Source: Prorocentrum cordatum
Lineage: Eukaryota
Direction of reading: 5' to 3'
Assembly (NCBI GenBank): GCA_963575745.1
Contig: CAUYUJ010000034.1
Coordinates: forward strand, 1 to 64,000
DNA length: 64,000 bases
A model generated the notes under the pieces. It searched no databases, was not told where the DNA came from, and saw only the letters and a program-made list of their open reading frames with translations. Of the stretch, positions 18,143-64,000 are shown one piece after another (position 1 is the first letter of the stretch; each line of letters begins with the position of its first letter). A program made the position numbers and the translations under genes.

Positions 18143-19555
18143 TCAATTCAACTGTGTGTACAGCGTCCACGGATAACGTGGGAAGTAGTTTTCCTTATAC
18201 CACTTTCCCATAGAGGCCGACCATGTGCCACCACTTACAGAGCTGACAGTTTCGTCCCAACGCTGCAACGCCAATCGCGGCATGTTGATTACGCATGCCC
18301 CCCTCTCCTCTGAAAGCTGCATCAAATAAGATTCTGCACTCGAACCAGGCTTTGAAGAACTGCGTCGCAAAAGCCACCGTGCAGCATCCGGAACGAGCGC
18401 ATAGGCGCTGCTAAAAGCCACCCCGTTTGCCAAATGCACGCCTTCATCTGTGGGGCCAAGCCAGCCATTCAATGCAGATGTAAGGCCACGCACAAAAATC
18501 CCATCCAGATAAAACAAGTCGACGTTTTTGCCGAGGTTGTGCGCTGCCATCGCCCATGATGCCTGCAGAAGATCCTTCCAATGCCGATGCAGAACAACAT
18601 CATCTTCAAGCACGAGCGCGCAGGCATCGTCAGGCAGGACAGCGATGCGACGCCATGCCAAGACATGTGACGCAGTATTTGCTAGCACGCCGCTCGGAGC
18701 GACCTCAAGCTCTTCAGCCAGCTCAGCAACCACGGCGTCAGAGGGCGTGCAGGCTGACAGCCTTTCTAAATAAATTCCGTGTAGAACTGCAGTTTCTTCC
18801 ATCTGGGCGCGGCGAACCTGGTGAGAATCTAAGTTGATGTAAAAAGACGCAGCAAGGTCAGGTTGGCCGAACCTTGTCAACGAGACTGGGTCCGCTTTGT
18901 CGTGCTCCAAATTGAACGGGTGCAGTGTAGCGATACAAATCTCCCGTGACTCACTAACAGATCGCCAAACGGTCGATATCTCGCCGAGGTAACCGAGCTG
19001 CGAAACGAAGTCATCCTCACCTTGATCAGCATCCTCCCATGCAAAAATGCATGCGTAAAAACGTAAATGCGATAAGCATGCCCGCAGCGTATGCTCAAAT
19101 GGCCGATGATTTACACGGTCGTAAAACGCGTCTGAAGCTACAATGATCCGGGGTGAGGCGTTGCTATCGTCCAAAAAAGATAAAGCTGTCTTCAAACATG
19201 ACAAGTTCCAGTCACCCCATTCCAAGGGGAAAGCCGTCATCAAAATATCCGAAGATATGCGGTTTCCTGCAGCGTTGGCCATGCACAAGTCTAGCGCAAC
19301 AGGGTCTCCATCTGTGGCTGCTACCCGAGACGCACCCAAGCAAGCACAGACAACAGCACACAAACCAGCTCCACTACCAAGTTCCAACACTGATGCACAT
19401 TGTGGAATTCGGTCTGGATTCTCACAGAGCCAAGAAGCTAATGCTTCCCCAGCTCTAGAAACGATACCACCCGTCTCGTTGCAAGCCATGCAACTCTGTT
19501 GTATGCGGACCGGTCGCAAGCCAGCGAGAGAAAAGTCTCGACATGATTCCAGCAT
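18143..19555 (-). CDS. Intronless 470-aa fusion: Methyltransf_16-type (METTL21-like) SAM-dependent protein methyltransferase plus GT25 glycosyltransferase
   Basis: N-terminal half has VLELGSGAGL, VAATD, LEWG and IIVASDAFY (DxxY-like). C-terminal half has FYINL...RRAQM, G...SH..AW and ALVLEDD. ATG to stop is intact in non-repetitive sequence. Confidence 0.85.
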   Translation of the reverse strand: MLESCRDFSLAGLRPVRIQQSCMACNETGGIVSRAGEALASWLCENPDRIPQCASVLELGSGAGLCAVVCACLGASRVAATDGDPVALDLCMANAAGNRISSDILMTAFPLEWGDWNLSCLKTALSFLDDSNASPRIIVASDAFYDRVNHRPFEHTLRACLSHLRFYACIFAWEDADQGEDDFVSQLGYLGEISTVWRSVSESREICIATLHPFNLEHDKADPVSLTRFGQPDLAASFYINLDSHQVRRAQMEETAVLHGIYLERLSACTPSDAVVAELAEELEVAPSGVLANTASHVLAWRRIAVLPDDACALVLEDDVVLHRHWKDLLQASWAMAAHNLGKNVDLFYLDGIFVRGLTSALNGWLGPTDEGVHLANGVAFSSAYALVPDAARWLLRRSSSKPGSSAESYLMQLSEERGACVINMPRLALQRWDETVSSVSGGTWSASMGKWYKENYFPRYPWTLYTQLN

Positions 19556-19575
19556 GGACTACTGTTTTATGATCA

Positions 19576-32165: not shown

Positions 32166-33942
32166 TTTTTGCTCTGCGCAGAGCCACGGGCCTGAGCCCA
32201 GGCCCGCTCGGGTCACAGCCACGCGCGAGGGGGGGCAGCGAAGCCGAGGGCTTCCAGCAACGCCACGACACCCCGCAGCAGGTCCTTTGCAGCAAAAAGC
32301 TCGGCTTGAGTCATCGCGCAGGCAGGCGGCAGAGAGAAGGCTTCAGAGGCGGCATCACACCACCAGCACGAGGCAGGTGGGCTAACAGAAAGACATTGGA
32401 GGTGAAGAGGAAGAGAAGGTTGCGCAAACAAATCAAGACCCCAGCCTCCGCCACAGCCTTCGGAACTGCGGCCACCGTCCATGTTACCACGGAATCCTCG
32501 GATGGTCACCTGCCGCAGTATATATACGCGGGTCGAATGCGTATTGACTCTGGCCCATGCGGGCCAGCCATATCTGATGATCAGCTCGTGTGTTACCTTC
32601 GCAATAAAACCGCTTAACAAGATCACAACCGTGGGGTAGGGCTCTCAGCTGCACAGGAGGGGACACAGACAATTCGCACAATACCTTCTGAATCGCAGCA
32701 ATCGTCGTCGCACACACATCCGTCGCACACTGCAATATACCGTTGATCCAGTTGCACGCCACCACTGAGTCCCCGAGGATCTCCGGAGGCATCCCAGGGG
32801 CAGCGTGATTCCAGCATGTATGATGGTCGTCGTTATACTGCAGTCGCTTTGATTTCCTCTCCTCCTAGGCCTCCTTGCTACGTTTCCTGACCTCCTCCAT
32901 CACATCCTCCTTCTCCCCACTCCAAGGTCCTCTGGGATCTTTCAATACAATATACTATATACTCCAGGATATGAGTAAGCTCCAAGACACCCAAGACCGC
33001 CCTCGCAAAATGCTTCCATGCATACTCATCCCACCGCAAGTTACTATACCAGTACGCCCCTCCCACCACTTCAAGCGGCGGGGTCCAAGGTCTGCACCCC
33101 GCAGCCGATCCTCCCTCACGACGCCAAGTGCGAGCTCTGACCTCTCTAGTCGGCCGCGCACGGACGAACGCAGCCATCTCGTCCGTCCAAGGCAAAGCCG
33201 CATGCTACATAGTAACCCAGGTCCCAGCGTGCACGCTGGCGTTTGTAATCGCGATTCTGCGGGGCATGCATGAAGGTGGTCCAGTCCTTCTCTGGAGGCT
33301 TGCGTTGCCACATCATCCTAGCTAGCAGCTTCCCCTCACATCTGTGCAAGGCCCCAAAGCTACTCTCAGCCGCAGTCATACCCTCCACCGAAGAGCATCT
33401 TGCTTCGCACCCTGCAGTCGCACCGTCGCAAGCGCCGGATAGTGGAAATATCGCGGCAGCAAACTGGCAGCCGGCGGTAGACCGTCAACCAGGTCACCGC
33501 CGGGACCCTCGTAGAGCTCTTGAAACGCGAATTAGTGCACAGAGTACGACGAGAGAGCTCACTTCAGTATCAGCTTAAAACTCCAAAAATCATTTTCTCT
33601 GTGTTATATGAGTTGGTTACGTCAAGTGTGCCAATCATAACATTAGAGCTACAGAGCTGAGATTTTAACAGGCTGACGTTCCACAACCTACTACAGGTAC
33701 AGAAATTACTGGAGATGTGTAGCTTGCTCCCTGCTTGAGTTCAGTGCACGAGACCATTATCACCTCAGAAAGTGCATCCCAACGGCCGATGGTTCCCCCA
33801 AGTTTTTTGGCAGCAATACTGGAGATGGGAATATCGCGGCAGCAAAAAAATCGTTTGTCCTACCAAAATGCTCGCTCCCCGTACTTGTTCCGACGTAACA
33901 CATCAACAGTGTCTTCATCCCACCGTCAATGACCACCCCCAA
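32166..33942 (-). mobile_element. 5'-truncated decayed LINE, same family as 58.2-64 kb, interrupted by a family-A fragment (33464-~33823)
   Basis: ILGDS..EGNTRAD, MDGG..TQAEL, PWTPPLEVVGGAYW and EGMTAAESSFGALHRCEG are collinear with the C-terminal part of the 1409-aa ORF2. The 3' end abuts a half hairpin motif (32135-32165). Confidence 0.85.
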
Positions 33943-39881: not shown

Positions 39882-42800
39882 TTTTGCGGTCTTTGCGGTC
39901 GACTGCGCGGGCCGTCTGGCCCAGTCGCAAGCAAGAAACGGGCATCATACAGGGTGAGCCAAACCGCCCACCACAGCGAGTGCGGCAGCTTGGGAGCGAA
40001 GCTCTTATAAAGGACCAGTGACAGTCAAGGGAAGCTCTTATTCAACACACGTGCATTCATGAGAACACACAAGTATGAAGAAAACAACGCATTCACAAGT
40101 CACAAAAGTTCAAACTCGAAGTATGTGTGTACAACCCGTGGAAGAACATCAATGATATGTTCAATCGCCGACATCTCGGCATCGGTAACTGTAGCATTGT
40201 TGTCGATAGAGAAAGCAGCACTGCACACCTCCGTCAACACTATATTTCTGGAGCTCGGCTTACGACATGTCCGCGAGACACGACCAACATCAATCCAGCA
40301 ACCGACTCCGACACCAGCCGTCGACACGCCACCATCGAAGCCACAATCAATGGCACAATACCTGTATAGACTCGAAATATCATTGGGCTCCTGCCCTATA
40401 CGATCCTCAAATATGTCGTTGCCCTCACGGGCAATATGAGTGAGCACGTCCGCCCTTGTATTCCATTCCCTGAAGCAGCGTTCGATCAAATCTCGTCCAG
40501 GAGCAGAGGGGCGTATATAGAACATAAAAGACGTACCATCCAGACGGTTAATAATCCTGTCAACTCTTCTCTGGAAGTCCTTATTGATCACTTGCCAGTA
40601 TCCCTGGCACCATGATACAACCAAGAGACTATCACCATGAATACTTATGGGGACTCCGAAGGCTTCAAGATCCCAATCGGCATTCTCTCATTTGGATGTG
40701 TGTACAGCAAAAAGTTTTAGCAAGACGATCGCTGGCGAGTTGCGAGCCCTCCGTAACTTCATACTCCCGAAGTTCCTGCTGGGTTTGGACGTGGACCTCA
40801 CCTGCAAGCCGAGGATGACTAAGACCTTTAGCACGAATCTGGAAACAATCGAGCATATCCCGTGAGCAGGCATGTGCTGCGAACTGTTCAAAGGCCCCAG
40901 GCGTAGCACGAAAACCTTCCCACCACTTGGGCCCGGAGAACTCCGAGAACGTGTGGGTCCAATGCCGTTGTCCGATGGCCAGGCCCCCTCCTCTCTGGCG
41001 TTTCATCTGACTGGGTTCCCGAAAGCAGAAATTCATGCGCAGGAACTCCGAAGCATCCGTACGAATACGATCCCACATCACACCATATGCACACAAGCAA
41101 GCACGCACATCACGCCATGTCCGATCTGCACTCCTCCACTCATCGGATATATCCGCATCGAGGACATGGATGAACTCGCACATATCTTTGGCCAGGTTCC
41201 AGGAAACACAAAGAAACCTCTGCACCATGGAAGCAAGCCCCATGTCCTGAAACTTCCTCCTAGCCTCCGCATACCTGCTCCGACTCCATGTGGAAACATC
41301 CTTCTCAGGTGCCCTGGGACATGTGAACAGTTTGCATAAACAGAACCCCATCGAAGGAGTGCATACGCTGGAGAGAAGGATTGTCGAGCGTTACACCCTC
41401 AATACCGTGCATGGCAATCCCTTGGACCTTCACCTGATACCTCCAGGATTTATCACGAATACTTACAGCGAAACATCAGAAATAGTTAGCCATACCGAAG
41501 AAACTCGTACGTGCCATGGACAGACGGTAATCTACATCGGGATGGGTAAGAGTATTGAACGCAGAATGGATCTCGACGCCGAGCACATTCATCGAAGAGA
41601 CTCTGCGGAAACGCAAGACCTCTGGTGTGACAACAATGAGGTCTTCCTCGGGTACGATCACGCCGTCTGCATCACAGCGCGGTGCTAGCCCACAGGACAT
41701 GAACAGCAATGATGACGCTTTCCACGCCATGCCGAACGGGAAAAGTGGTAATGTTAGATCATGAATCATGGCCCTGGGGTCTGGAACAGAGCCGGCCACA
41801 AGATAGACGTTGTCCGCCCAGAAAAAGTGACTGACGAGGAGCTCCTTACGTGCGGACCCGAAGAGCCCTTCGACTCGGTAGCCCATTCCCTCCACATCCC
41901 ACGATCTGAAGACATCGGCCCACATTCCCACGATAATCAAGTTGAACACCAGAGGCCCCTCGGGGCCCCCCGTACGTATACACCTATCCCAATGGAGCCC
42001 AGGAGTTTCCATCCCTTCGACAATCACTGTACCTATTTTCCCACATAACGGAGCCAGGAGAGCAAATTGAAGATATGGAGATACATGTGCGTGTTGTAAT
42101 ACCTTCTTCACGTTAGCTAAACTACAATGATCGAACGCCTGTTTAATATCAGCATTCACGATGTACACACTCTCACTCATACCCCACGTATCCCCATGTT
42201 GAGCCAGTGTTTTTAGACTGCTAGAAATTTCCCAAGTCTCACGTGCCTCCTGGGACCCATAGATACCCAAGTTATGGAATATTCCAGAGCGCTGCACAAA
42301 GTTCTCTGTAAGGATAACCACACAGGCCGAATACCAACGAGAAATAGCATTTTGAATAACAAGGTAGCGACCCTCAGACCACGTCGTCAGGCAAGGGACC
42401 TTGGGCATAAACGAAATCAAGACCTCCCTCCACCCGTCAGGATGGTACTGAGAACACGTGAATATCCGATCACAGAGCATCTGGATAGAGCGGAGGGCAG
42501 ACCAGGGGAGAGCAAGAAGTATTTCCGTTGGCACACGGTCGGGCCCAGTCGCCCGCAACGTCTTCAGGCGGCTTCGCGCCCAGCATAGAATAGCCATGCT
42601 GATTTCCTCCGTACACCGCCCGTCCTTGAAATTGGACACAGCCTCCTTCCTCAGCTCCTCCAACATCTCGACGCTCTCACCCCCAAACCTCCTCCGACGA
42701 ATACTTGGCAGTAGAGTGCCCCTTAATCTCCCGCCTCCACTCCTCCCTGTCCTCCGTCACCATCCCGTCTATCACACGGTGCTTGATGCGGCGGCGAACA

Positions 42801-45398
42801 TTGCGCCTCGAAATGGGACTGTCCCACTCGGCAAGTGCTGCGATACCGACTGCAAACAACCCGGAGCTCTCTACGCTCCTCCTCAGATAAGACTGGCACT
42901 GCACGGCGCAGCTTCTCTACGCCACGCTGCAGCTCAGGTGGGCGGACGGGCGGCAATCCACGACCCAACTTAGCCGTCGCGAAGCTCACGTTCTCTGCAT
43001 TCGTGAAAGCGCTCAAGAACTTTTCAGAAAGATCCCCAGGAGAGCACGATACAGTGGCATCCCCAAGAAACCCATCAATACGTCTCCGAGCCATATCCTC
43101 ATCCTCCCATGTAAGACATTCAAACCCGACAAGAGAACGTTCACGAGCGGCAACACTAGTAAAGGAGCGATGGATATCCACACCTGGTTTGGAGAAAGCA
43201 CCCTGCACCAACGCATGGTCACTCAGTCTGGAACGGTTCGAAGACCCCCCCATTGTGGAAGATTTTTTTGACCGGGAGATCCGTACAATTCCACTCCCCC
43301 GGAATCAGGATATAGTCCAGGACGGTACCCGATCTTGTGGCGCCGTACGCTTCCCAGGTATGGAGTCTCGCATCTTGAAACGGGTTCGCCGAAGCCGTTC
43401 TCTGCAATCCCTCCGTTCCCGTTGAGCTCCTCCTTCGTTCACGATCCTCTTCGCCTCCTTCGTAGCTCCACCCACCGCCTCGAACTCCTCCCCCGTACGT
43501 GCACACGTGACACGAGCGCGCGGTGGCAACTCGACGTTGGCATCCGCAAGAAAGACAAAGCTGGCCTTGCACCATCTGCCTCTAAGAGAACGCACAACAC
43601 TCCCCAGCTGCTCAAACACGGATGTCTGGATATCCTCACTATTAGGAATACTTGGATCAGGAAGGTACATCCTGAAAACAACCAGTGAATATTTGCCACT
43701 GCCGAAAACTACTCCGCAGAAACGATCGAACTCACATATACAATGTCGGATGGACGCTGCCCACTCATCTCCAAAAAGAATAGCACATCTTGGGCACATG
43801 CTGGATCTAATACCCAGACGTAGTCTAGCAAGTACTGCATCGAATTTACTCCCAAAGAGATTATGCGTCTCCTGCAAGCCGAAGAGCGACACCCTGATCT
43901 TCAAAGCCCCCAGGATCTCCTTCCCGCAAAAATTTGCAGTACCAGCCCTATTCAGATTCCGATATCCCACCTGGAGTCCTACAAACGAACTGGACCTGGA
44001 AGCCTGTCGTCAGGAACGCCGGTTCACTTCAGCTTCGACCTCTGAACGATCTCGAGAGAAGGCTGGGCACGCACGCTGAAGCTTCGCGAAAACATCCACG
44101 CTGACATCCCACAAGGACTTGGCGGTAGTGAACTCTGCGAGCATTATGGGACGTTCGCCCGAGTTCTGAGGAATAGTCCAGATCGTGGAGCGAGGAGGCC
44201 CATCTCGCCTTTGATCGCAAGCGTGGGCATACGAAGATCGGTGCATATCGAGCAAATCGTAACCACAGAAACGGCCAACAGCTTTGACATGATCACGTTT
44301 CCAACTCGGACACTCCACCGTCACACGAATCGCGACAAGCACCTGAGGTGGTTAAATAATGACCCCTGGAGGTGGCGGAACACGATTCTCGACGGCAGCA
44401 GCAAAGCGATCAATGTCACGTTTCACACGCCAGATCACATCACGGTCAGTGCCATGTTTGAACTTACAAGAACCAAACATTTACCTGCCTGCATTCGCCC
44501 TCTCAATAGCATCAGGACAAATGTACGTGGCATCACCTTCTCCGAGGATCTTGATAGCATCATGACCAATCTGCTTACAGTCCGACCACATGAGCAACTG
44601 TTCCGAACGAGTCGTGCGATCATTCCAGTTAGTGACCCAACCTTTCAGCTCAATACATGTAGGTGTGAAATATAATGGATTCACAACAGAGCCTGGACGA
44701 GATGGGGCCCCTGGAGCACCGCCACAGCTGGGCCCTGACGTGGTCGAAGCACTCTTCTGGAAGTTATTGACGAGAGTCTCAAGTGCTGTCTGTCGATTCT
44801 CTAAATTGGCGATGGCCGAACCTTGCTTCTCAACAATTGTCTCGACACGTTTGAACTGCTCCTTCTGACCACCAATGCATTATTTGATGGATTCTGTAAA
44901 ATCCCAATACATATACATCAGGTTCTGGAACATGGCCTCAACACCCTCTTTCCCCGCAAATTCCTGAGCCCTACTCCTCTCCTTCCCTTCCCGATTCCGT
45001 TTCTGCGGGGGGGGGGCTGGTCGCGCATAGCAACATCAGCGGCAGCCATCTCGGAAGATCTCTGAGGAGGGGCACCCCACGATTCAAGCCAGTCGTCGTC
45101 TGTCTGTGGCTTGACGCCCCACTTACTGAGCCAATCCGCGTCTACAGACTCGACCCCAACAGCTTCAGAAACCAAATGTTTGCAATGTCTGGATAAGACC
45201 TCTCGAAACTGATAAGGAGACACAACATTCACCGTGCAGTAAGAAGCAAGCAACAATCAAACAAAGAGAGGCAGCGGCGGCTGGAGGCGTGGAAGTCGTC
45301 GGCGATCCACCACGGCGCCAGGGCGCCCCGCAGCACGCCCCACGACGAGGACGACAGACTCTCCAGGCCACGGGGGCCCTGGGCCGAGATTTTCTCGA
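39882..45398 (-). mobile_element. Near full-length decayed LINE (ORF1, APE, RT, RNase H)
   Basis: ORF1 remnants at 44010-45050 (FTPTCIELKGW), APE at 43305-43970 (GLQET, YLP, ADAN), RT at 41476-42666 (ADIKQAFD, IRTGGPEGP, WADN) and RNase H at 40100-40640. It splits one family-A hairpin into 39851-39881 and 45399-45420. Confidence 0.92.
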
Positions 45399-53590: not shown

Positions 53591-55333
53591 TTTTTGCGTC
53601 TTTTGCGAAGGCAGGCCTAAACACAAAGAACCTAAACAGCGAAGCTGTACAGGAAGACAGCGAAGCTGCAAAGATTAAAGCAGAGGTGCAACAAACAGCG
53701 AAGCTGCACAGATATGCACAAGACTGCCAATACACGAGAAGACAAATAAAAGTAGAAAGAGGAAAGCAAAGCAGTGCGAGACCATGCAGTAACCACATAT
53801 AGCGATTACCGTCTCAGCACCACTGAAAATAAAAGCAGTGTAGTGTCGACTAGATCAAAGGCCTACTTTGAGGCACCACGTGACAAATCACGGAAAGTCA
53901 CGTTCGAAGGTCAATGAGCACTCAAATCAAGGAAGCAACGAATGACCTACTTTGAGGGAGGAATCATCCTCCTCGGATCTTTCAATTCCCAATTGCAGCC
54001 TGTATGCATTAAGAGCCTCAGTCCTACGCTGAAACTCCTGTCTCGGGAGTCGGTGTAGCCCACGCCAAAGAGCACTGACATCGACACCGGCAAGGGCCCA
54101 GTCCCTGGCAGCTTGACACTCGTCCTCCGTCACTGCTGAACTCACAACTGCATTAGATAAACTCCCAGTCGTGGAACTCCCAGGGTGTGAAGTCATAGAA
54201 TCTTTATAATGAGAATAATGCAACTGTTCATTCCGCAACTCCTCATTCTGCAACTCCTCACCCTACAACTCCTCATCATGCAACTCCTCTTTCAGAACAC
54301 CTGGATCAACAGAAACAGAAACCACTTCCGAGTTTTTGTTGTTGGTGATAGTTACTGAAGAGCTCCAGTCAACCGCAGAATCAGACTGAACATGCCCGAC
54401 CTCATCGTCCATCACCTCATTAAGATTTTCCTGCCAATCTTCATTCAGAACCGCAGGGTCACTAGAGACAGAAACCAGTATCGACTGCAGCACACCCTCC
54501 GAAGACTGTAGCACATCTCGAGGCTGCACCACATCAGGAGACTCCTCCACCTCCTTCCACACCTTAAGATCTTCCTGCCCAGCCTTCCCAAGACAATCCG
54601 ACGGAGCGTCCGGAGATGAAGCGCGGCAAACTTCAGAGCTGGAATCCAAAGAAACAATATGCTGAGAATAATGCAACTGCTCATTCAGCACCTCCTCACT
54701 CTGCAAATCCTCATTCTGCAACTCCTCGTCCTGCAACTCCTCATTCTGAACGCCAGGAAGAAAAGAAACAGAACCCAGCACACCATCTGGAGACTGCACC
54801 GCATCTGGAGAACAAGCAACAGAATAGGACGACAAAGCTTTCCCACGATCAGTTGGCCCATCGGGTTTAGCGACTCCGTCGAAAGACTCAGTCATCACAC
54901 CCAGAGCCTCTAGCACACGGATCTCTGGAGATTGCACCACGGCTGGAGACTGCACCACCTCTGGAGACTGTATCCCCACCGGAACGCACTGCAGAGTATG
55001 GATGTCAAAGAGGGCTTGTCGAAACATGGCGAGTCTCAGCCTTCTCGCTCGCCGCCGCCACGACGAGGATGGGGAAGAAGAAACGGGATACGAGATGGCA
55101 TACAGAGTAGAAGTCGACGAGGTACAAAATTGCGTTGTCACGGCACCACACAGCAAGGAGTACTCACACAACAAATCTGGCTCCACCCACTGCAGAGACA
55201 AGAGGTGCTCAAGCCGCCATCGCACGGCCCGCCCGCGCGCACACGGCCGCCCAGGGGGCAGCCTGAGGAGACAGGCTTGAGGAGGCCCCCGACGGGCCAG
55301 GCCACCGCTGAGATCCCCGAGGAGGGACAGCGG
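53591..55333 (-). mobile_element. Non-autonomous retroposed element (1.74 kb) with a 10-bp TSD
   Basis: CAACCTGGTC is duplicated at 53581-53590 and 55334-55343. The 3' tail reads CGCAAAAGACGCAAAAA. No RT or endonuclease motifs are visible. Confidence 0.88.
53927..55027 (-). pseudogene. Acidic, internally repetitive ORF (~366 codons) of unknown function with one in-frame TAG
   Basis: ORF-track entries 54263-55396 and 53927-54253 are in the same frame, separated by TAG at 54263-54265 inside a QNEEL repeat (likely CAG>TAG). First in-element ATG is at 55027. Confidence 0.5.
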
Positions 55334-58300
55334 CAACCTGGTCACCGCCGGGAACCTCGTAGAGCTCCTTGCACCCGTAAGGAAGCTCAGGATCAAAGCG
55401 GAGAGCTTCTGGGAGCTTTTCTAGAAAAACGTCAAATTGAGATTTTCCGGAGTCAACATGAAGTCAATTCCCGGAAGTGAACTGGCACTAAAATTGGCTC
55501 TAGAGAGCTGAGCTGCTGAGACAACGAAGTTGATATGCCAATGCTTGGCGTAAGAATCTGCTTTCTCAGAATGAATTGTCAAATATCTTTCAAATCTCAG
55601 CAAACCCGACCGAAATTTGTCACATTGTCCTTTCTGGTCGGGCCGGCCAATGGGAGCCGGCGGTAAACTGTCAACCAGGTTACCGCCGGGGCCCTCGTAG
55701 AGCTCTTTTCTCACACAGCGCTCCTCGGTAGACATGAAGGAAGCGTCTGGAGCAAGACCTGAAAAAAAACTCAAAAGATCACGTTTTTCTGTTTTTATCC
55801 AAAGTCGGTTCCCCCAGTTTTTTGATAGTAATACTGCAGCTACGGACCTGGGAATTTGACTGGCAGACGCGGCATTCCCCACTACAGGTGGGAAAAATCT
55901 GGTTGCTCAAAATAAATAATCAAATATCTTTCAAATTTCCGCAGAACCGACCCAAATTTACCACATCTTCTTTTCTCGCCGGGTCGACCAACTAGCTCCA
56001 CCCCGCGCCGGAACTGGGCGCCGGCGGTAAACCGTCAACCTTTCTTACCGCAGGGGGACTCGTAGAGCTTCCTGACCATGAATAGTGACGAAAGAGAACG
56101 AATAGTTCAGCCCGAGCGATTTCAGACCTCTCGATGCAACAGCCGAACGCCTCTGATGCTTCTGGATCGTTTTCTGTGCGTACGAGCTCTGTAGCTCTCC
56201 TACAGCCCAAGTTACGTGCGAAAATCGACAGCACCACTTAAGATGACTCGAACAATACGAACAGCTTCGCGAACCTAGCTCGAGTATCAGACCGAGTTCA
56301 GACCTCTGAATGCGACAGGCGGACGCGCCTGATCTTCCAACTCGATTCCTGTGATTACCAGCCCTGCAGCTCCCCTACAGCCCGAGTTAAGTGCAGAAAA
56401 CTGGCAGCACCTCGCCTGATGTCTCGAAATCGATTCCTGTGATTACCAGCCCTGTAGCCCCCTAGAGCCCGAGTTAAGTATAGAAAACTGACAGCACCTC
56501 TCAAGATCACTCAAACAATATGAATAGTTTCGCGAAACTAACTCGGGCAGCAGACCGAGTTCAGAGCTCTGGATTCAACAGACGAACGCGCCTGATGATT
56601 CTCTATCGATTTCTGTGAGTATGAGCTCTGTAGCTGTCCTATAGCTCGAGTTAAGTACAAAATACCGAGAGCGCGTAACAAGATAACTCGAAACGGCCGA
56701 TCCCGCCCGCGTGCTTTTTTGGCAGTAAAAGGTACCCGATCGAGCTCAGATCAAGAGGGCGAGCGGGAATAAGATCGAAAATCACGGGAAAAAATACTAG
56801 CTCTAACGAATCATTGAATTTCGAGAACAAAACTGGACGCCGGCGGTAAACTGTCAACCTTTCTTACCGCCGGGAGACTCGTAGAGCTTCCTGACCATAT
56901 ATAATGTCGAAAAAATTGCAGAGAACGAATAGTTATTCAGCCCGAGCGATTTCAGAGCTCTCGATGCAACAGCCGAACGCCTCTGATGCTTCTGGATTGT
57001 TTTATGTGCGCACGAGCTCTGTAGCTCTCCTACAGCCCGAGTTACGTGCGAAAACCGACAGCACCTCTCAAGATGACTCGAACAATAGGAATAGTTTCGC
57101 GAATCTAGCTCGAGTATCAGACCGAGTCCAGACCTCTCAATGCGACAGGCGGACGCGCCTGATGTCTCGAAATCGATTCCTGTGATTACCAGCCCTGTAG
57201 CCCCCCTACAGCCCGAGTTAAGTCCAGAAAACCGACGATGACTCGAACAATACGAATAGTTTCGAAGACCTAGCTGGGGCAGGAGACCAAGTTCCGAGCT
57301 CTGGATTCGACAGGCGGACACGCTCATACTTTGAAATCGATTTATGTGATTACTAGCCCTGTAGCCTCCCTGGAGCCCGAGGTAAGTGCAGAAAACCGAC
57401 AGCACATCTCGAGATGACTCGAAAAATACGAATAGTGTCGCAAACCTAGATCGGGCAGCAGACCGAGTTCAGAGCTCTACATTCAACAGACAAACGCGCC
57501 TTATCATTCTGAATCGATTTCTGAAAGTATCAGCTCTGTAGCTGTCCTGTAGCTCGAGTTAAGTACGAAAAACCGACAACACCTCACGAGATGACTCGAA
57601 AAGGCCGATCCCGCCTGCCTGCTTTTTGGCAGTAAAAAGTATCCGATTTGACGGCGAGCGGGAATAAGATCGAATATCATGGGAAGAAATACTGGAGCTC
57701 TAACGAGTTCTTGAATTTCGAGAACGAAATTTTCAACCGAGCAAAAGTCACCAAAAGGTCCGTCGATATTTTTCTTGCCAACTAGCTCTCCAGAGCGCCG
57801 GAACTGGCGCCGGCGGTGAACCGTCAACCTGGTCGCCGCCGGGAACCTCGTAGAGCTTCTTTCACGTATAAACGTGCTCAGAGTCCAAAGGCAGAGCTTC
57901 TGGTGGCATACGTCGAAAAATTCAACATTAAATTTTTTCATGTCGGAAAAAAGTTGGTTCCTCCAAGTGTTTCGATAGCAAAAGTCCGCCCAGAGAGCTC
58001 ATATTCAGATGCAGAGACCCTCATCGTCCACAGGTGCGAAAAATCTGGCTTCTCAAAATGAATTGTCGAATATCTTTCAAATCTTTGGAAACCCGACCAA
58101 AAGTTACCATATCTTCTTTTCTCACCGGGTCGACCAACTTAGCTCCACCCCGCGCCGGAATTCTTCTTAGCTCATCGATAACTGGCACCGGCGGTGAACC
58201 GTCAACCTGGTCTGCGGTCTGCGGGGCCCGATTCGAGCCCCCTTAGGGGGCAGGGCCAGCGGTAGGATTACCTACAGGCAACCTAAGCACTAACAGCGGA

Positions 58301-58444
58301 GCTGTGCGAATATACAAGTCAGCGTAGCTGTGCAGATATGATACAACAGCGTAGCTGCACAGGAATATACACACATCGAAGAAACAGCGGGGCTAAGCAT
58401 GTATCTTACAACAGCGGAGCTGTGCAGATATAGTACACAAACAA

Positions 58445-61400
58445 TCACCGCCCAAGCTGTACGTGTATACACATCTCGGCAATGCCATTGAGAAGCGAAT
58501 GTGCAGCTGCCAACTCAGCCTGTGTGATCGTGCAGTGGCTAGGGACCATGAAACCTCTGCGGCCAACTCCAGGGTGCCATCCGCCCTGCACAAGTCCAGG
58601 GGGAAGCTGGTGAGGAGGAAGAGAGGGAACAAGATAAGCATCCATAACCCAGCCACACGAAGTGCCACGTTCACACCGCCCGCCGTCGAAAGCTCCTCTA
58701 AGTGCACGAACACTATAATGACCCGATCTAATATGATAAAGAGTGTTATGATTCCAACGAACATCAGAAGTAACTTTACCCTCACGTGCAAGATGTGTCT
58801 CATGGTCCGCCTCATCGTTGCCCTCCCTATACACAAATTTCCACATATCCCTTCCCACTTCTGCCGTGACAAGATGATGGTCCTCACTCATTCTGTGAAG
58901 GCGGTTCTGCATTCCCTTGATCGTGCGGCGATATACTTCATTGTGACAGCGATATCGTCCATTAAGCCAGCGCACAACACACTGGCTATCCCCACGGAGC
59001 TCCAAGCCATATCCACCCCCTTCCCCACGCCAAGTGGTTTCATCATCATTTATCGCGGCCAGTCGTTTCGCCACCCGTTCATTTTCCCGTCGTTGCTGCT
59101 CCTCTGACTTCTCCTCCCCCTCCTCCTCCTGCTTGAACTCACCCGTGAAAGGATCCCGAAGAAGGCAGAACTCGAGAAGATCATCCAAGTCCAGGGCGGC
59201 CAGGGTACCCACCAGGAAGGAACGCCAGCCAGTTTCATTCCAGACCATCGTGCGATCCCAATGAACCCCGCGCGTGTGCTCGAAGACCTCGAACCAAGGC
59301 CTAAGTCCCGTCAAGACTCGATGACGACAAGCTCTAGTAAACCGTCGGCCCCCAGGGAGAGCTCTAACATGTACGTCACGCCGCTCAGTCCACTCCCCCG
59401 ACGCGTGCATCATCGTCAAGGCGCTCTGCATACTGGCAGTGGGCAATCCTCCTTCCTCCTCCCGTGCATAGGTATGGCGTACCCGCTTACGAACAGGCTC
59501 ATGTGCATGTTGTGAATCATGATGCTCATGTGCCGTGTTCTCCGATATACGTCTGCGAACTGACCTATTCTCCAAGGGAGACGCGCTCTGTGCCTTTCTC
59601 CTACACGAACTGTTACGCTGTCTGGCATTCGGGGTAGGCGAGGGAACCGATGACTCCAAGGAGCGCTGCGAGCCGCCAAAAATATCAGGATCTCGTGGCT
59701 CATGATAAAGAATGCCCTGACTGAGTGCGTCCTCATCCACCCGACTATGCTCCTCATGGATCGTGCTCACAACATGTTTGGCGAAGAGCCACTGGCGATG
59801 AAGGGCGAGCTGGACCATCGAAGGCTTACGGGCCCACTTCAATAAGCGACGACCACCTTTAATCCTCCTGCCCCAGTACTCTCTCCAGGACTCCGTGATC
59901 TTCATTTTGAGACGTCTCATGGTGGACAAGAAGTTGCCTTCAGCTGCATGTATCTGCTGGAGACTACCCGAATCCAAAGTCGTACCCTCCAAACCGTACA
60001 GAAAGCAACTTCTGACCCTGCTATCATAACGCTGAAACTTACAACGAAGCGGAACCACGGGCGACGAGTAAAAAGAAATCTCACTCATAAAGACCCGTCG
60101 TGCCTTCTCCAGTCGGTGCTTAATGTCTTCATGATCCTGAAATCGTACGTCCAATAGCGTGCCAAGAACCTCCATCCTCTCCACCTGCCTTACTATCATC
60201 TCCTCCGAAGGACCTGCGGCGCTCTGGGAAGCCCCACAAGAACGCTTCCTACCCACCTCAGCAGGCAGGAGCCCCGGCACAGGCAGGCGGATATCCTGCA
60301 ATGGACCTTGGACGCCACAAGCCAAGAACTCCATCGAAGATGCTTTCCAGTTGAAACCGAAGCGGTGGAGGACCCCAGTCAAGTCCTCGAGCATATGGGT
60401 CAATTCTCGCCTGGAAGCTGCTGCCAGCAAAATATTGTCTGCCCACAACCAGTGGTTGACCAAGAGATTGGATGCCTCATCAGTGAGCCTGACGCCGTAT
60501 CCAGACTGTCTCCAACCTGCCGTCACTGGTGCAAGCATACGAAGGGTCTGGGCAACAAATAGCAAAGGCGCCTCCAAGGAACCTGTACGAATGCAAGTAT
60601 CCCACGAGATGGTCGTAGAACACTGTTGGAAGATGATCTCTGCCGTGTTACAAGCATAACTCTCAAAGACAGCATACACAAGGGCAGGATGGACATGATG
60701 GAATAAAAGCGCCTCTGCTGCACATCTAACCGTGAAATTATCAAACGCCTTTTCAATATCAGCACTTGCAAGGTAAAGACTCTCCTCCTTCCCCCACACA
60801 ACGCCGTGTTGAGCAAGACGTTTGAGGGGGGCCGTGACCTCATAACATTTGTGACCCGCGTTAAAGCCATATAAGTTGCAACCTGGCGGTGCAGCCTGCC
60901 GAACGCGGTGTTCTAGAAGTATACATAGACAACTGCTATACCATTTACCAAAATGAGAAAGAAGTGAAAGGGCCCGCGTTTCTTCAAAATCACGAGCTTT
61001 GGGATTCTTAGGCATCAAGCATACCAAGATCTCTCTCCAGGACTTCGGTGAAACATGTTTCTGATCATACAGCAAACGGAATAAGGTAAGTATGTGTCGG
61101 AGGGCTTCCCATGGCAATGCTTTGAGCACCGATGACGACACCCCGTCTGCACCTGTTGCCCGTCCTTCCCTGAGTCTAGACCGTGCCTCCAGCAAGAGAC
61201 CCATGTTGATCAGGTTGCGGTGGGGCTCTCCAGAGTCTCGCAGGGCCTTACACTGGTTCTTAAGCTCATCCAAGCACGCGTTGGTGTCCTGTCGGTGGGG
61301 ATCGCTAGAGTACCTCAGGAGCCCATGACGCCGAAGGCCCTCAATCCACTTTTCCTGGTCACGCGTGAGGACCCCGTCCACATACATGTGCGTAATAACA

Positions 61401-62713
61401 GGCCTACGACGGACACCGTCACGAATACGATAAAGCTCACATGCACGATCATGACGCCTACGAACTCGACGCCACCGCTTAGCTGTCCCCTTATACTCCT
61501 CCTGGACTCTCTCGTACTCCCCCTGTCCCACGTTAGCCCCGCCATACCGCGCCAACCTCCACCTCTTCCTGACCTTAAAGAACTCCTCCTTAATCAGTAA
61601 ATCCTCCTCCGAATATCTGGGATAATCTGAAACAGGCTGACCATGAGAACGGGAAATATCCAAAGTCTCGCTGGCACCTTCAAGTATACTCTGTGTCATG
61701 ACCTCAAAACCTACGTCCGTGTGGATCTGATTCACGAGCTCGGGCTGGCAGATCGCTCTCTCCAAGCCGGCTGTCTGCTGGAGCTCGAACCCTGGCTGAA
61801 GCTTCCAAGTCTTGAGCTGAGGCCGACGTCGATACCTCAACTGAGCATGCTGGGCGGGCATCTCGGCACACAAGAGCTTGTGGTCGCTAAACGCCCTTTC
61901 CGTCGCCTCGGACCGTGGGACCTGGGACGGCACAACCCAAGAACAAGTCACCTCTGGAGTCATCCAAGAAGCTGGGACCGCAAGATAATCATAAACGTGC
62001 TCGTATGTGCTTGAATTGTGTCTCCAAGTAGGCTGACGATTCCCAAAAGTGTTAGCTAGCTGCAACTTGAGGGCCCCCATGGTCTTCAGAAAGGCCCCCG
62101 AGTACATCTCCCGCATCCTGTTGGCTCTACTTTCGTCACCTCCACTAGACCTCCCCCTCTTACGTATAGGCCCATTCACCGCCTCCCCCGTAACCTCCAC
62201 CCCATTGATCCTGTGGTGCGGGAAAACCTCCACGTTGGCGTCAGCCGAGATAACAACCTCCTCAATGTGAAATCGCTTTTTGGCCGCAGAGACATGTGCA
62301 ACAAGATCCGATAACACGTCCGTATAGAGCTTGAAACTAGCGAGAAACCCTTCAGGAGAACGGCGTGCTTCACCCTGTGCACCCCGCTCAGACTCCTTAT
62401 GAGGGAGATAGACAGAAACGAAGATGAGCTTGCGAAAGATCGCAATGACCCAGCGACGACCACACACAACATCGATAAGCAGATGTCTCCATACACCTCG
62501 GCACAAGATGGCAGCCCGTCTCCCCGCGTTCTCCCCCTCATCTGCCGAGCGATGTATATCCCAACCCGCATCTGCAAGATCCAAGTCGTGTAAGAACTGG
62601 CTCTCTTGGACCCCGACGATGGAAATCTTTAATTCGGCAATGTGATTCATGCACTCGGAGGTGTATCTTCCCAACCTCCGAACGTTCCAACCTCCAACAG
62701 AAGCTGGGCACCG
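58445..62713 (-). CDS. LINE ORF2: APE endonuclease, reverse transcriptase, permuted RNase H
   Basis: APE motifs GGWNV, VQES, SVYLP, ADAN, YDY and SDH. RT motifs TGADG, MPK, ADIEKAFD, IRTGSLEAP, WADN and VLG. RNase H motifs GDS, REGNDEAD, FDGG and AEL. The frame is open from the ORF1 stop and the true start is uncertain. Confidence 0.95.
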   Translation of the reverse strand, partial: RCPASVGGWNVRRLGRYTSECMNHIAELKISIVGVQESQFLHDLDLADAGWDIHRSADEGENAGRRAAILCRGVWRHLLIDVVCGRRWVIAIFRKLIFVSVYLPHKESERGAQGEARRSPEGFLASFKLYTDVLSDLVAHVSAAKKRFHIEEVVISADANVEVFPHHRINGVEVTGEAVNGPIRKRGRSSGGDESRANRMREMYSGAFLKTMGALKLQLANTFGNRQPTWRHNSSTYEHVYDYLAVPASWMTPEVTCSWVVPSQVPRSEATERAFSDHKLLCAEMPAQHAQLRYRRRPQLKTWKLQPGFELQQTAGLERAICQPELVNQIHTDVGFEVMTQSILEGASETLDISRSHGQPVSDYPRYSEEDLLIKEEFFKVRKRWRLARYGGANVGQGEYERVQEEYKGTAKRWRRVRRRHDRACELYRIRDGVRRRPVITHMYVDGVLTRDQEKWIEGLRRHGLLRYSSDPHRQDTNACLDELKNQCKALRDSGEPHRNLINMGLLLEARSRLREGRATGADGVSSSVLKALPWEALRHILTLFRLLYDQKHVSPKSWREILVCLMPKNPKARDFEETRALSLLSHFGKWYSSCLCILLEHRVRQAAPPGCNLYGFNAGHKCYEVTAPLKRLAQHGVVWGKEESLYLASADIEKAFDNFTVRCAAEALLFHHVHPALVYAVFESYACNTAEIIFQQCSTTISWDTCIRTGSLEAPLLFVAQTLRMLAPVTAGWRQSGYGVRLTDEASNLLVNHWLWADNILLAAASRRELTHMLEDLTGVLHRFGFNWKASSMEFLACGVQGPLQDIRLPVPGLLPAEVGRKRSCGASQSAAGPSEEMIVRQVERMEVLGTLLDVRFQDHEDIKHRLEKARRVFMSEISFYSSPVVPLRCKFQRYDSRVRSCFLYGLEGTTLDSGSLQQIHAAEGNFLSTMRRLKMKITESWREYWGRRIKGGRRLLKWARKPSMVQLALHRQWLFAKHVVSTIHEEHSRVDEDALSQGILYHEPRDPDIFGGSQRSLESSVPSPTPNARQRNSSCRRKAQSASPLENRSVRRRISENTAHEHHDSQHAHEPVRKRVRHTYAREEEGGLPTASMQSALTMMHASGEWTERRDVHVRALPGGRRFTRACRHRVLTGLRPWFEVFEHTRGVHWDRTMVWNETGWRSFLVGTLAALDLDDLLEFCLLRDPFTGEFKQEEEGEEKSEEQQRRENERVAKRLAAINDDETTWRGEGGGYGLELRGDSQCVVRWLNGRYRCHNEVYRRTIKGMQNRLHRMSEDHHLVTAEVGRDMWKFVYREGNDEADHETHLAREGKVTSDVRWNHNTLYHIRSGHYSVRALRGAFDGGRCERGTSCGWVMDAYLVPSLPPHQLPPGLVQGGWHPGVGRRGFMVPSHCTITQAELAAAHSLLNGIAEMCIHVQLGR

Positions 62714-63826
62714 TCACGAGCTGCTGTTCACCTGCCTCTCCCAAGTCTTGCAGTCCAGACCTGAATCGATGTGCTGGACCCGCTCGGCCACGAACTTCCA
62801 TCCCACGGTATCCGTCCACGTACCTACACACACTTTATCACTCTGGCTATCCTTCTGCAGGTATGCCCAAGCCTTCGCAGGCCCTTCAGGCTCAAAAGTG
62901 ATGAGAGCGGTGGCAACAGTCTTGAGCTTATGAAAGATCGCAGTCGCCTTGCGAGTCTCCCCAACTCGACGTCGGTCCTGTGGTGCAGGTTGGACAAACC
63001 AACCGAGGTGTCGATCTTTGTATGGTCCAAAACTGTTCTGGCAACCGACCAAATCAGGGCAAGAACTGGACCAGGCTGAGGCCCACTCGTTGCGTACTTC
63101 CCAGACCGTCCCTTTCGAAGTCCCTGGCATGAAGTATATGCGAAACTTGGTCACACCAAATCGATTGGAAGCGATATCCCCGTCCGTCCTACCCCTGTCG
63201 AAGATCTTAATAACGTCACTCTCCCGTGCTTGCGATAGTGTGTACAACTTACCTATCATGTTCCTAACCGTGGCGACCTGGATCTTGGCCTTATCTCGAG
63301 TTTCTACCTTTCGGGGGTCCTCTTGCGCGAAGCCGCCCACCTGGATCCAAGTCGGGACATGTGGTACAAAGGGCCTCTGGAAGTCAGCATTACGAGAGTC
63401 ACGAGTAGACGCACCTCCCAGAGATGATGAATCTGCCCAGGGACCCCTAGAGTTCATCTGAGCCTGAAGTGCTTTTATCTCTTTCGCCTGGGCCTCCTGA
63501 GCTGAACGAATCTCCTGCACCGACGAAGCAATAGGGGCAACCTGCTCTGATACCCTCGTTTGAATCTGCTCTTTGATGTCAACAGAGCTCTGCATAAGCA
63601 TCCTCTGCATATCTTCACGCATGGCATCGAACTGTGCACGGAGCATAGTGGCCAGATCTCCTGCTTCACCTCCTCCTCCTCCACTACTACCACTTCCATT
63701 CCCACTGACTGCCCCTCCTCCACCACCCTCGGCATCACCAAGAAGATGTCTATCTTCCAAGAGCTTCCTCTGTCGCTTCTCTCCGTTGCCCTCGGTTCCC
63801 ATATCATCATCAGAAGTCGGAACCAT
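62714..63826 (-). CDS. LINE ORF1 (370 aa, coiled-coil N-terminal half)
   Basis: Lies upstream of ORF2 and contains a heptad-like helical stretch. The VPTWIQVGGF segment matches FTPTCIELKGW in the 39.9-45.4 kb copy. Confidence 0.85.
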   Translation of the reverse strand: MVPTSDDDMGTEGNGEKRQRKLLEDRHLLGDAEGGGGGAVSGNGSGSSGGGGGEAGDLATMLRAQFDAMREDMQRMLMQSSVDIKEQIQTRVSEQVAPIASSVQEIRSAQEAQAKEIKALQAQMNSRGPWADSSSLGGASTRDSRNADFQRPFVPHVPTWIQVGGFAQEDPRKVETRDKAKIQVATVRNMIGKLYTLSQARESDVIKIFDRGRTDGDIASNRFGVTKFRIYFMPGTSKGTVWEVRNEWASAWSSSCPDLVGCQNSFGPYKDRHLGWFVQPAPQDRRRVGETRKATAIFHKLKTVATALITFEPEGPAKAWAYLQKDSQSDKVCVGTWTDTVGWKFVAERVQHIDSGLDCKTWERQVNSSS

Positions 63827-64000
63827 CTTTCTCTTAAGATCACACTGCCAACAACTGGAAGTAGAATACCGATAAGCTCGACAAGTAGGGCACCTACTAG
63901 CCTCCAGATCACGATAGTGTTCGTCCTCGAGTTCTTCAAGAAACTTATCCCAACCCCGTAAAGGTGAATGTCGGTACGTGATGAGATCTGCTGCAACAAA

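Follow-up and report, generated by a model that had tools for sequence, protein, structure and literature searches.

We report that the second open reading frame (ORF2) of a retrotransposon without long terminal repeats (non-LTR) ends in an archaeal-type ribonuclease H (RNase H) whose two halves are encoded in reversed order. The element lies in a 64,000-nucleotide stretch, hereafter called the window (positions 1 to 64,000, forward strand, of contig CAUYUJ010000034.1 in the Prorocentrum cordatum assembly GCA_963575745.1). The reversal is genuine. It amounts to a circular permutation of the archaeal-type enzyme that has been conserved, and the motif order is a trait of the family. We read the last ~190 residues of ORF2 as a circularly permuted aRNH (RVT_3), the archaeal/plant variety of type 1 RNase H, most likely forming one fold that would cut the RNA of hybrids, and we give this reading a probability of roughly 0.8.

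In this copy, called the 58-kb copy, the order along the minus strand is GDS, REGNDEAD, FDGG and QAEL, followed directly by the stop at the end of ORF2. An earlier sequence-only reading had given these places and this order, and it turned out to be exact to the base. Residue numbers refer to the tail, that is the last 267 residues of ORF2 counted from 1 (58448-59248, minus strand). The parts are as follows; motifs and the stop codon are placed from the sequence itself, and rows are those of family alignments.

58445-62674, minus strand: ORF2 of the non-LTR retrotransposon, 1409 amino acids, from the ORF list, with endonuclease-like motifs at the N-terminus, then reverse transcriptase, spacer and, at the C-terminus, the permuted RNase H
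59045-59104, minus strand: conserved helix E..AKRLA...E..W (H49-68), directly upstream of strand beta4, from prediction and kept in 19 aligned members
58784-59011, minus strand: first-encoded half, residues 80-155, corresponding to the canonical C-terminal half (beta4, alphaB, alphaD, beta5, alphaE), from profiles and structure prediction
58985-58993, minus strand: GDS (G86-D87-S88)
58988-58990, minus strand: Asp87 of GDS at the end of strand beta4, the canonical third carboxylate, D in 66 of 69 rows
58805-58828, minus strand: REGNDEAD (R141-D148)
58826-58828, minus strand: Arg141 of YREGN, the marker of archaeal-type RNase H, R in 82 of 85 rows
58805-58807, minus strand: Asp148 of N..AD in helix alphaE, the canonical fourth carboxylate, D in 81 of 84 rows
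58718-58783, minus strand: new linker of ~22 residues with a short helix (H167-174), connecting the end of alphaE (the former C-terminus) with the start of beta1 (the former N-terminus), predicted as coil and helix
58463-58717, minus strand: second-encoded half, residues 178-262, assigned to the canonical N-terminal half (beta1, beta2, variable loop, beta3, alphaA) from structure prediction, VIA-align and the profile match of the relative P0042
58679-58690, minus strand: FDGG (F187-D188-G-G)
58685-58687, minus strand: Asp188 of FDGG in strand beta1, the canonical first carboxylate, D in 77 of 79 rows
58511-58525, minus strand: TQAEL
58514-58516, minus strand: Glu245 of QAEL at the start of helix alphaA, the canonical second carboxylate, E in 63 of 68 rows
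58445-58462, minus strand: short tail and stop; the protein terminates where canonical beta4 would start
58445-58447, minus strand: stop codon of ORF2

To locate other copies, we ran tblastn of ORF2 against the window, and two were found, both on the same strand as ORF2. The match of the 40-kb copy spans 40148-42808 (minus strand); compared with the 58-kb copy, its reverse transcriptase is 35% identical and its tail 27%. The match of the 32-kb copy spans 32258-33216 (minus strand) in three frames, contains stops and shows 32-36% identity, the RNase H remnant (32258-32933) being 35-36% identical. In both copies the four motifs could be located in the same order, as the sequence-only reading had said, and both end shortly after the AEL/AEM helix. 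In the 32-kb copy the archaeal-type Arg is replaced by Cys (YCEGNTRAD, 32580-32600), and a frameshift separates the halves. Besides, no canonical RNase H was found among the 35 other ORFs of the window.

41347-42808, minus strand: reverse transcriptase remnant of the 40-kb copy, from tblastn
40103-40687, minus strand: permuted RNase H core of the 40-kb copy, open for 195 codons with a stop just upstream, from tblastn and motifs
40628-40642, minus strand: IHGDS of the 40-kb copy
40448-40471, minus strand: REWNTRAD of the 40-kb copy
40328-40339, minus strand: FDGG of the 40-kb copy
40172-40186, minus strand: TDAEM of the 40-kb copy
32258-32933, minus strand: permuted RNase H remnant of the 32-kb copy, decayed and with in-frame stops, from tblastn and motifs
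32766-32780, minus strand: ILGDS of the 32-kb copy
32580-32600, minus strand: EGNTRAD of the 32-kb copy
32471-32482, minus strand: MDGG of the 32-kb copy
32297-32311, minus strand: TQAEL of the 32-kb copy

The same order recurs throughout the database relatives. A word-indexed search gave three relatives that share the tail at 57% identity, and HMMER with the 267-residue tail, run in a search space of 1.84 billion representatives, gave 108 proteins at E<=1e-3, 37 at <=1e-10 and 6 at <=1e-30. All relatives that cover both halves are collinear with the tail in one continuous match, the shorter matches being fragments. N..AD precedes DGG in every printed protein that has both motifs (7 of 7), and no close relative in canonical order occurred among the matches. 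The chain of family members ends at a median of ~25 residues past the Glu. When metagenome contigs were scanned with five full-length relatives, 7 loci were obtained, and those reaching the 3' end (3 of 3) are permuted.

We summarized the conservation in an alignment of 20 sequences (A1) and one of 89 rows (A2). The invariant columns of A1 are R141, E142, N144, A147, D148, D188, G189 and E245; among the rows counted, all 85 keep N144, and 78 of 79 keep G189. The four acidic residues, which had been described as retained in the window copies, read D-D-D-E in 47 of the 51 A2 rows that have residues in all four catalytic columns; the rows that depart are P0084, P0086, P0088 and P0093. The four carboxylates and the archaeal-type Arg are retained down to ~25% identity. 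Generally, the linker between the halves varies in length and sequence across the family, and most members have a long variable loop between beta2 and beta3. A subgroup (P0042, P0043, P0063, P0070, P0073 and P0107) is marked by a short beta2-beta3 loop, with a motif that reads GDN or GDS; it scores best with RNase HI models from archaea and bacteria, and may stand nearest to the ancestor before permutation. As for the hosts, the source label "Pyramimonas sp." stood on 6 of 15 matches of another search, and near-identical DNA is present in aquatic metagenome runs, among which no RNA run was listed. The host of this retrotransposon family is probably a green alga of the prasinophyte group.

Independent DNA was available for the 3' end of the element. 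We compared contigs of four public runs with positions 58300-59400, and a contig of 1564 nucleotides from run X2 spans 58310-59400 collinearly and without joints, with 22 differences and one gap in the 3' untranslated part. Among the 20 listed coding differences 15 are synonymous, and 4 codons take up the remaining 5; in the RNase H core, the listed differences comprise 10 synonymous ones versus 4 nucleotides in 3 codons. A collinear contig with mostly synonymous changes speaks against an artefact of assembly, and in favour of purifying selection having acted recently on this domain.

We then asked what each half matches in profile libraries. Judged by these matches, the part of the domain that linear profiles can see is the first-encoded half, as the C-terminal half of an archaeal/plant-type RNase H. 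For the 58-kb copy, this half aligns with positions 63-117 of the 123 in Pfam RVT_3 (PF13456; E 0.056, 13.8 bits, cut-off 21.6) and with 71-134 of the 143 in NCBIfam NF041175 (E 2.7e-4, score 20.8, cut-off 140). RVT_3 was listed for 9 of 13 member cores, always at profile positions of at least 61, and the best member reached 20.1 bits, still below the cut-off of 21.6. NCBIfam models of RNase HI were listed for 10 of 14 member cores, and the top score of NF041306 among members was 27.4 with a cut-off of 300. For RVT_3, NF041175 and NF041306 alike, the alignable portion is only half of the profile. Searched against PDB, the A1 profile matched LC11-RNase H1 (3u3g_D, E 9.3e-6, profile 54-133 on chain residues 68-137 of 140), Halobacterium RNase H1 (4e19_A, profile 58-132 on chain 134-197) and also S. 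tokodaii RNase HI. The motif around R141, YREGN..AD, aligns with PREKNARAD in 3u3g and PREENKEAD in 3aly. In the same search DGG matched 3u3g residues 9-34 below the threshold.

The relative P0042 gives the clearest profile evidence for the permutation itself. It matches NF041306, the model of haloarchaeal RNase HI, with E 6.6e-6 in two stretches: residues 111-155, which hold FDGG, correspond to profile positions 47-93, and residues 89-109 correspond to positions 176-196 of 197. The two stretches adjoin in reversed profile order, so that the end of the profile is directly followed by its beginning. The claim of a natural permutation of an archaeal/plant-type RNase H is supported by the profile matches of the C-terminal half, by R141 in 82 of 85 rows and by P0042. 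It had also been expected that linear hidden Markov models would return two partial hits; that is true of P0042 with NF041306, while members usually give one hit below the threshold. Homology of the second-encoded half to the canonical N-terminal half is suggested by its motifs, the predicted structure and this one profile match.

For the structure, we ran AlphaFold2 with the 89-row alignment. The 267-residue tail was predicted with a mean local confidence (pLDDT) of 92.1 and a predicted template modelling score (pTM) of 0.81, and the core of the 40-kb copy (195 residues, 26% identical) with a pLDDT of 96.2 and a pTM of 0.91. A pTM of 0.91 over 195 residues means that the two halves are placed confidently relative to each other. 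As modelled, both are single rigid domains. The predicted order of elements in both models is beta4-alphaB-alphaD-beta5-alphaE-linker-beta1-beta2-beta3-alphaA; the linear order beta1-beta2-beta3-alphaA-beta4-alphaB-alphaD-beta5-alphaE of type 1 RNase H occurs in neither model and in none of the relatives. In the tail, the first half comprises E80-86, H89-95, H104-124, E126-128, E136-138 and H141-155, and the second half E178-192, E195-208, E223-235 and H241-262, with Asp188 in the first of these strands and Glu245 near the start of the helix. Each of the four carboxylates thus falls in the predicted element where a type 1 RNase H has it. A canonical DG/E half upstream of GDS, which had been named as the finding that would speak against a permutation, was not found: upstream of beta4 the prediction contains helices only, and the 19 aligned members have no DG or E motif there. 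What lies upstream of the conserved AKRLA helix in these members is an acidic linker, preceded by a Trp-rich helical region.

The structure searches returned halves. Sequential aligners gave no whole-domain match for either model (Foldseek top matches had a root-mean-square deviation (rmsd) >11, and the best VIA-align Z were 5.3 and 4.9), and no known fold with the connectivity of the permuted domain was seen among the Foldseek and VIA-align matches. In VIA-align, RNase H entries appear as half-domain matches only, with the highest identities of the lists: 20-27% versus 2-15% for other rows in the two all-PDB lists, and 18-27% over all four lists, where one other row has 17%. Entries 3u3g, 4h8k, 3aly and 4e19_B align to model residues 70-160, the C-terminal half, with Z 3.4-3.8; for 3u3g, 3aly and 4e19 the identity is 19-26%. 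For example, residues 91-199 of 4e19_B lie on model residues 70-158, while residues 67-133 of 4e19_A lie on 180-263, the N-terminal half (Z 3.4, rmsd 3.0, 65 aligned residues, 23% identity). Two chains of one PDB entry thus take two alternative registers on the model, as a permutation predicts. Small ribosome hibernation factors of beta-alpha-beta-beta-beta-alpha topology superimpose completely (e.g., 90 of 90 residues of 4v4g_Aa), which we take as a hint that beta4 lies in one sheet with beta1-3. When the halves were folded as two chains (residues 72-166 and 172-267), the score was 0.01, a value that counts neither for nor against pairing; this run left the alignment unused, and the fold of the partner was uncertain.

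Several results weigh against a single permuted enzyme. All Pfam and NCBIfam scores for RNase H stay below the curated cut-offs, and the N-terminal half is recognised by a sequence profile in one member only (P0042). Pieces of this half gave an RNase H family match in Pfam in 0 of 19 cases and a match through the N-terminal half in NCBIfam in 0 of 17; a set of three N-half pieces gave 0 of 3, a PDB search with A3, the profile of this half, returned no RNase H, and the second-encoded half of the 58-kb copy itself has no profile match. On the structural side, half-domain Z values of 3.4-3.8 are weak, lying below the level at which the tool warns of a mere common arrangement, and of the four VIA-align lists just one shows a match of the N-terminal half, in one row. 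The sheet in canonical order (3-2-1-4-5) and the meeting of the four carboxylates are inferred. Moreover, both other copies in the window are decayed.

These results leave some room for another view, in which two partial domains lie in tandem as what is left of two RNase H copies; they would form no single fold, have no nuclease activity and serve at most as a structural or nucleic-acid-binding appendage. The N-terminal half is indeed barely seen by sequence profiles, and whole-domain structure searches reach Z 5.3 at best. However, relics would not be expected to keep all four carboxylates and the archaeal-type Arg down to such low identity (47 of 51 rows); the pTM values of 0.81 and 0.91 correspond to a confident mutual placement of the halves, and synonymous changes dominate between close copies. 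We consider this explanation unlikely. As to the origin of the permutation, we looked for relics of a tandem-duplication intermediate by comparing alphaA and the tail with the upstream helix and beta4, and hhalign gave a probability of 0.1%, that is no support.

The nearest known enzymes are the archaeal-type RNases HI (S. tokodaii 2EHG/3ALY, LC11 3U3G/4H8K and Halobacterium 4E19). The tail shares with them the D-E-D-D carboxylates, Arg in place of His before the last Asp, and the motifs R(E).N..AD and GDS..V..W.nG. It also has the same predicted elements, with no helix predicted between alphaB and alphaD, and these enzymes are its best matches both in sequence and in half-structure. It differs from them in the reversed halves, the new linker and, in most members, the long beta2-beta3 loop; besides, the domain is fused to a reverse transcriptase and scores under all curated cut-offs. 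Comparison with the bacterial type was less informative: hhalign of profiles A1, A3 and A4 against 85 bacterial-type RNases HI gave motif matches of 11-14 columns (N..AD, DSQ) with probability <3%, where all members of the bacterial set are >=79% identical to E. coli and its profile is too shallow and distant. A tblastn search of the C-terminal half against plasmids returned noise only.

It is also conceivable that the permuted RNase H-like fold keeps its metal site and has changed its substrate, for instance to DNA or structured RNA, or that it has a role in target-site or second-strand cleavage. Many nucleases are built on the RNase H-like fold, the link with the reverse transcriptase has shifted its position, an extra conserved helix stands upstream, and the putative N-terminal endonuclease is too diverged for Pfam. 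The nearest sequence matches, however, are all bona fide RNase HI enzymes, and the signature Arg and N..AD of the archaeal type are retained, which makes a changed substrate rather improbable. A domain-swapped dimer, in which the halves pair between two ORF2 molecules and each active site comes from two polypeptides, seems to us about as improbable: the permuted order would fit intermolecular complementation too, but a linker of ~22 residues suffices for folding within one chain, and AlphaFold2 gives a confident monomeric domain in two diverged copies. That the swapped order is an assembly artefact, or is undone by splicing or rearrangement, can practically be dismissed, since it is common to three window copies, 108 database proteins and 3 metagenome loci, runs without joints through a collinear contig of an independent run, and stands in one open frame ending in a stop.

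Under the preferred reading, a permuted archaeal-type RNase H, the domain would work as follows. The old C-terminal half, with Asp87, Arg141 and Asp148, is encoded first, then come the linker of about 22 residues and the old N-terminal half with Asp188 and Glu245, and together they most likely adopt a single alpha/beta domain of the usual RNase H-like kind. The four carboxylates would meet there and bind two divalent metal ions. During target-primed reverse transcription the reverse transcriptase of the element makes an RNA:DNA hybrid, whose RNA strand is the presumed substrate, and removal of the RNA would free the first DNA strand for second-strand synthesis. The permutation would shift the tether between the nuclease and the rest of ORF2 from beta1 to beta4, which may alter the reach of the nuclease to the hybrid.

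RNase H is among the best-studied folds, and the evolution of retroelements has been traced with the help of their RNase H domain. Circular permutants of the E. coli enzyme have been engineered for folding studies, and they would show that the fold tolerates joined natural termini and chain ends placed elsewhere; those are laboratory constructs of the bacterial type, whereas the permutation described here is natural, family-wide and of the archaeal type. No account of a retroelement with a permuted RNase H turned up in our literature searches. By keeping the full active site throughout a natural family, the permutation would show that the encoding order can change even in a tethered, processive enzyme. 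It would offer a natural experiment on the position of a nuclease relative to its polymerase, and a test case for the duplication-and-truncation route to permuted proteins.

Two lines of published work come close. According to the available text of one account (PMC5348765), ORF2 of plant Ta11-type L1 elements and of oomycete L1 or Utopia elements ends in an aRNH, defined by Arg instead of His at a semi-conserved active-site position; in the Ta11-type and oomycete L1 groups it is preceded by a CCHC motif. As in our element, an archaeal-type RNase H thus stands at the very end of a non-LTR ORF2 in a green-lineage or protist host, and the presumed role, removal of template RNA, is the same; in that text the domains are described in canonical order with CCHC, whereas ours is permuted and lacks CCHC or CxxC. 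The second is the CIRPIN study (PMC13552848), in the available part of which an unnamed RNase H-like permuted pair, found by computation, is mentioned. This pair also represents a natural circular permutation within the RNase H-like fold, but it is given there without accessions, organisms, context or a link to retrotransposons; it may belong to the present family, be a true RNase H or be another member of the wide superfamily. In the same part, its authors state that there was no earlier report of permuted ribonucleases besides T2/BECR.

We lean somewhat towards the view that no earlier case has been described of a true type 1 RNase H that is naturally permuted and catalytically competent, and that this one is fixed in a whole unrecognised clade of green-algal non-LTR elements, with its tether moved, its hold over the hybrid thereby changed, and the domain hidden from profile annotation. 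Pfam and NCBIfam detect at most half of the domain, and below the threshold, so surveys of non-LTR elements with their own RNase H miss this clade. If the reading is true, elements of the permuted clade would be scored as having no RNase H.

The rest of the element fits a very diverged lineage, which the whole element represents. Its reverse transcriptase is matched by Pfam RVT_1 over ORF2 residues 563-778 (E 4.4e-7, 30.2 bits, cut-off 29.6). At the N-terminus, the motifs GLQE.Q, D.N.E and SDH are kept in 5 full-length relatives, and we take them to be motifs of an apurinic-type (EEP) endonuclease; the first 313 residues of ORF2 gave no Pfam match even at E 10. A phmmer search of ORF2 against PDB gave no match, and no CCHC-like or CxxC pattern occurs anywhere in ORF2. 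The remaining parts are as follows.

61775-62713, minus strand: ORF2 residues 1-313 with endonuclease-like motifs, from conserved motifs
62714-64000, minus strand: ORF1 of the same element, continuing past the end of the window, with no family match

Directly after the ORF2 stop, the 3' untranslated part (58300-58440, minus strand) has several copies of a short motif, approximately CTGCACAGCT[A/C]CGCTG, which were spotted by eye and could be a 3' end repeat for the priming of reverse transcription. We found no relic of a spliced leader in the window, a feature that would have pointed to a dinoflagellate origin. In the stretch that codes for the acidic linker (59077-59150, rich in GAG/GAA), the word depth in two runs is up to 100 times that of the flanks, which probably reflects low-complexity DNA common to many sequences.

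Elsewhere in the window, two ORFs (54263-55396 and 53927-54253, both minus strand) have internal short peptide repeats (VQSPE/AVVQSP and NEELQ/DEELQ) and no family match. Among the 35 other ORFs scanned, the only family match outside retroelements is an ORF of 471 amino acids at 18146-19558 (minus strand), which combines a Methyltransf_16 lysine methyltransferase (E 1.3e-10) with a glycosyltransferase of family 25 (E 2.7e-7).

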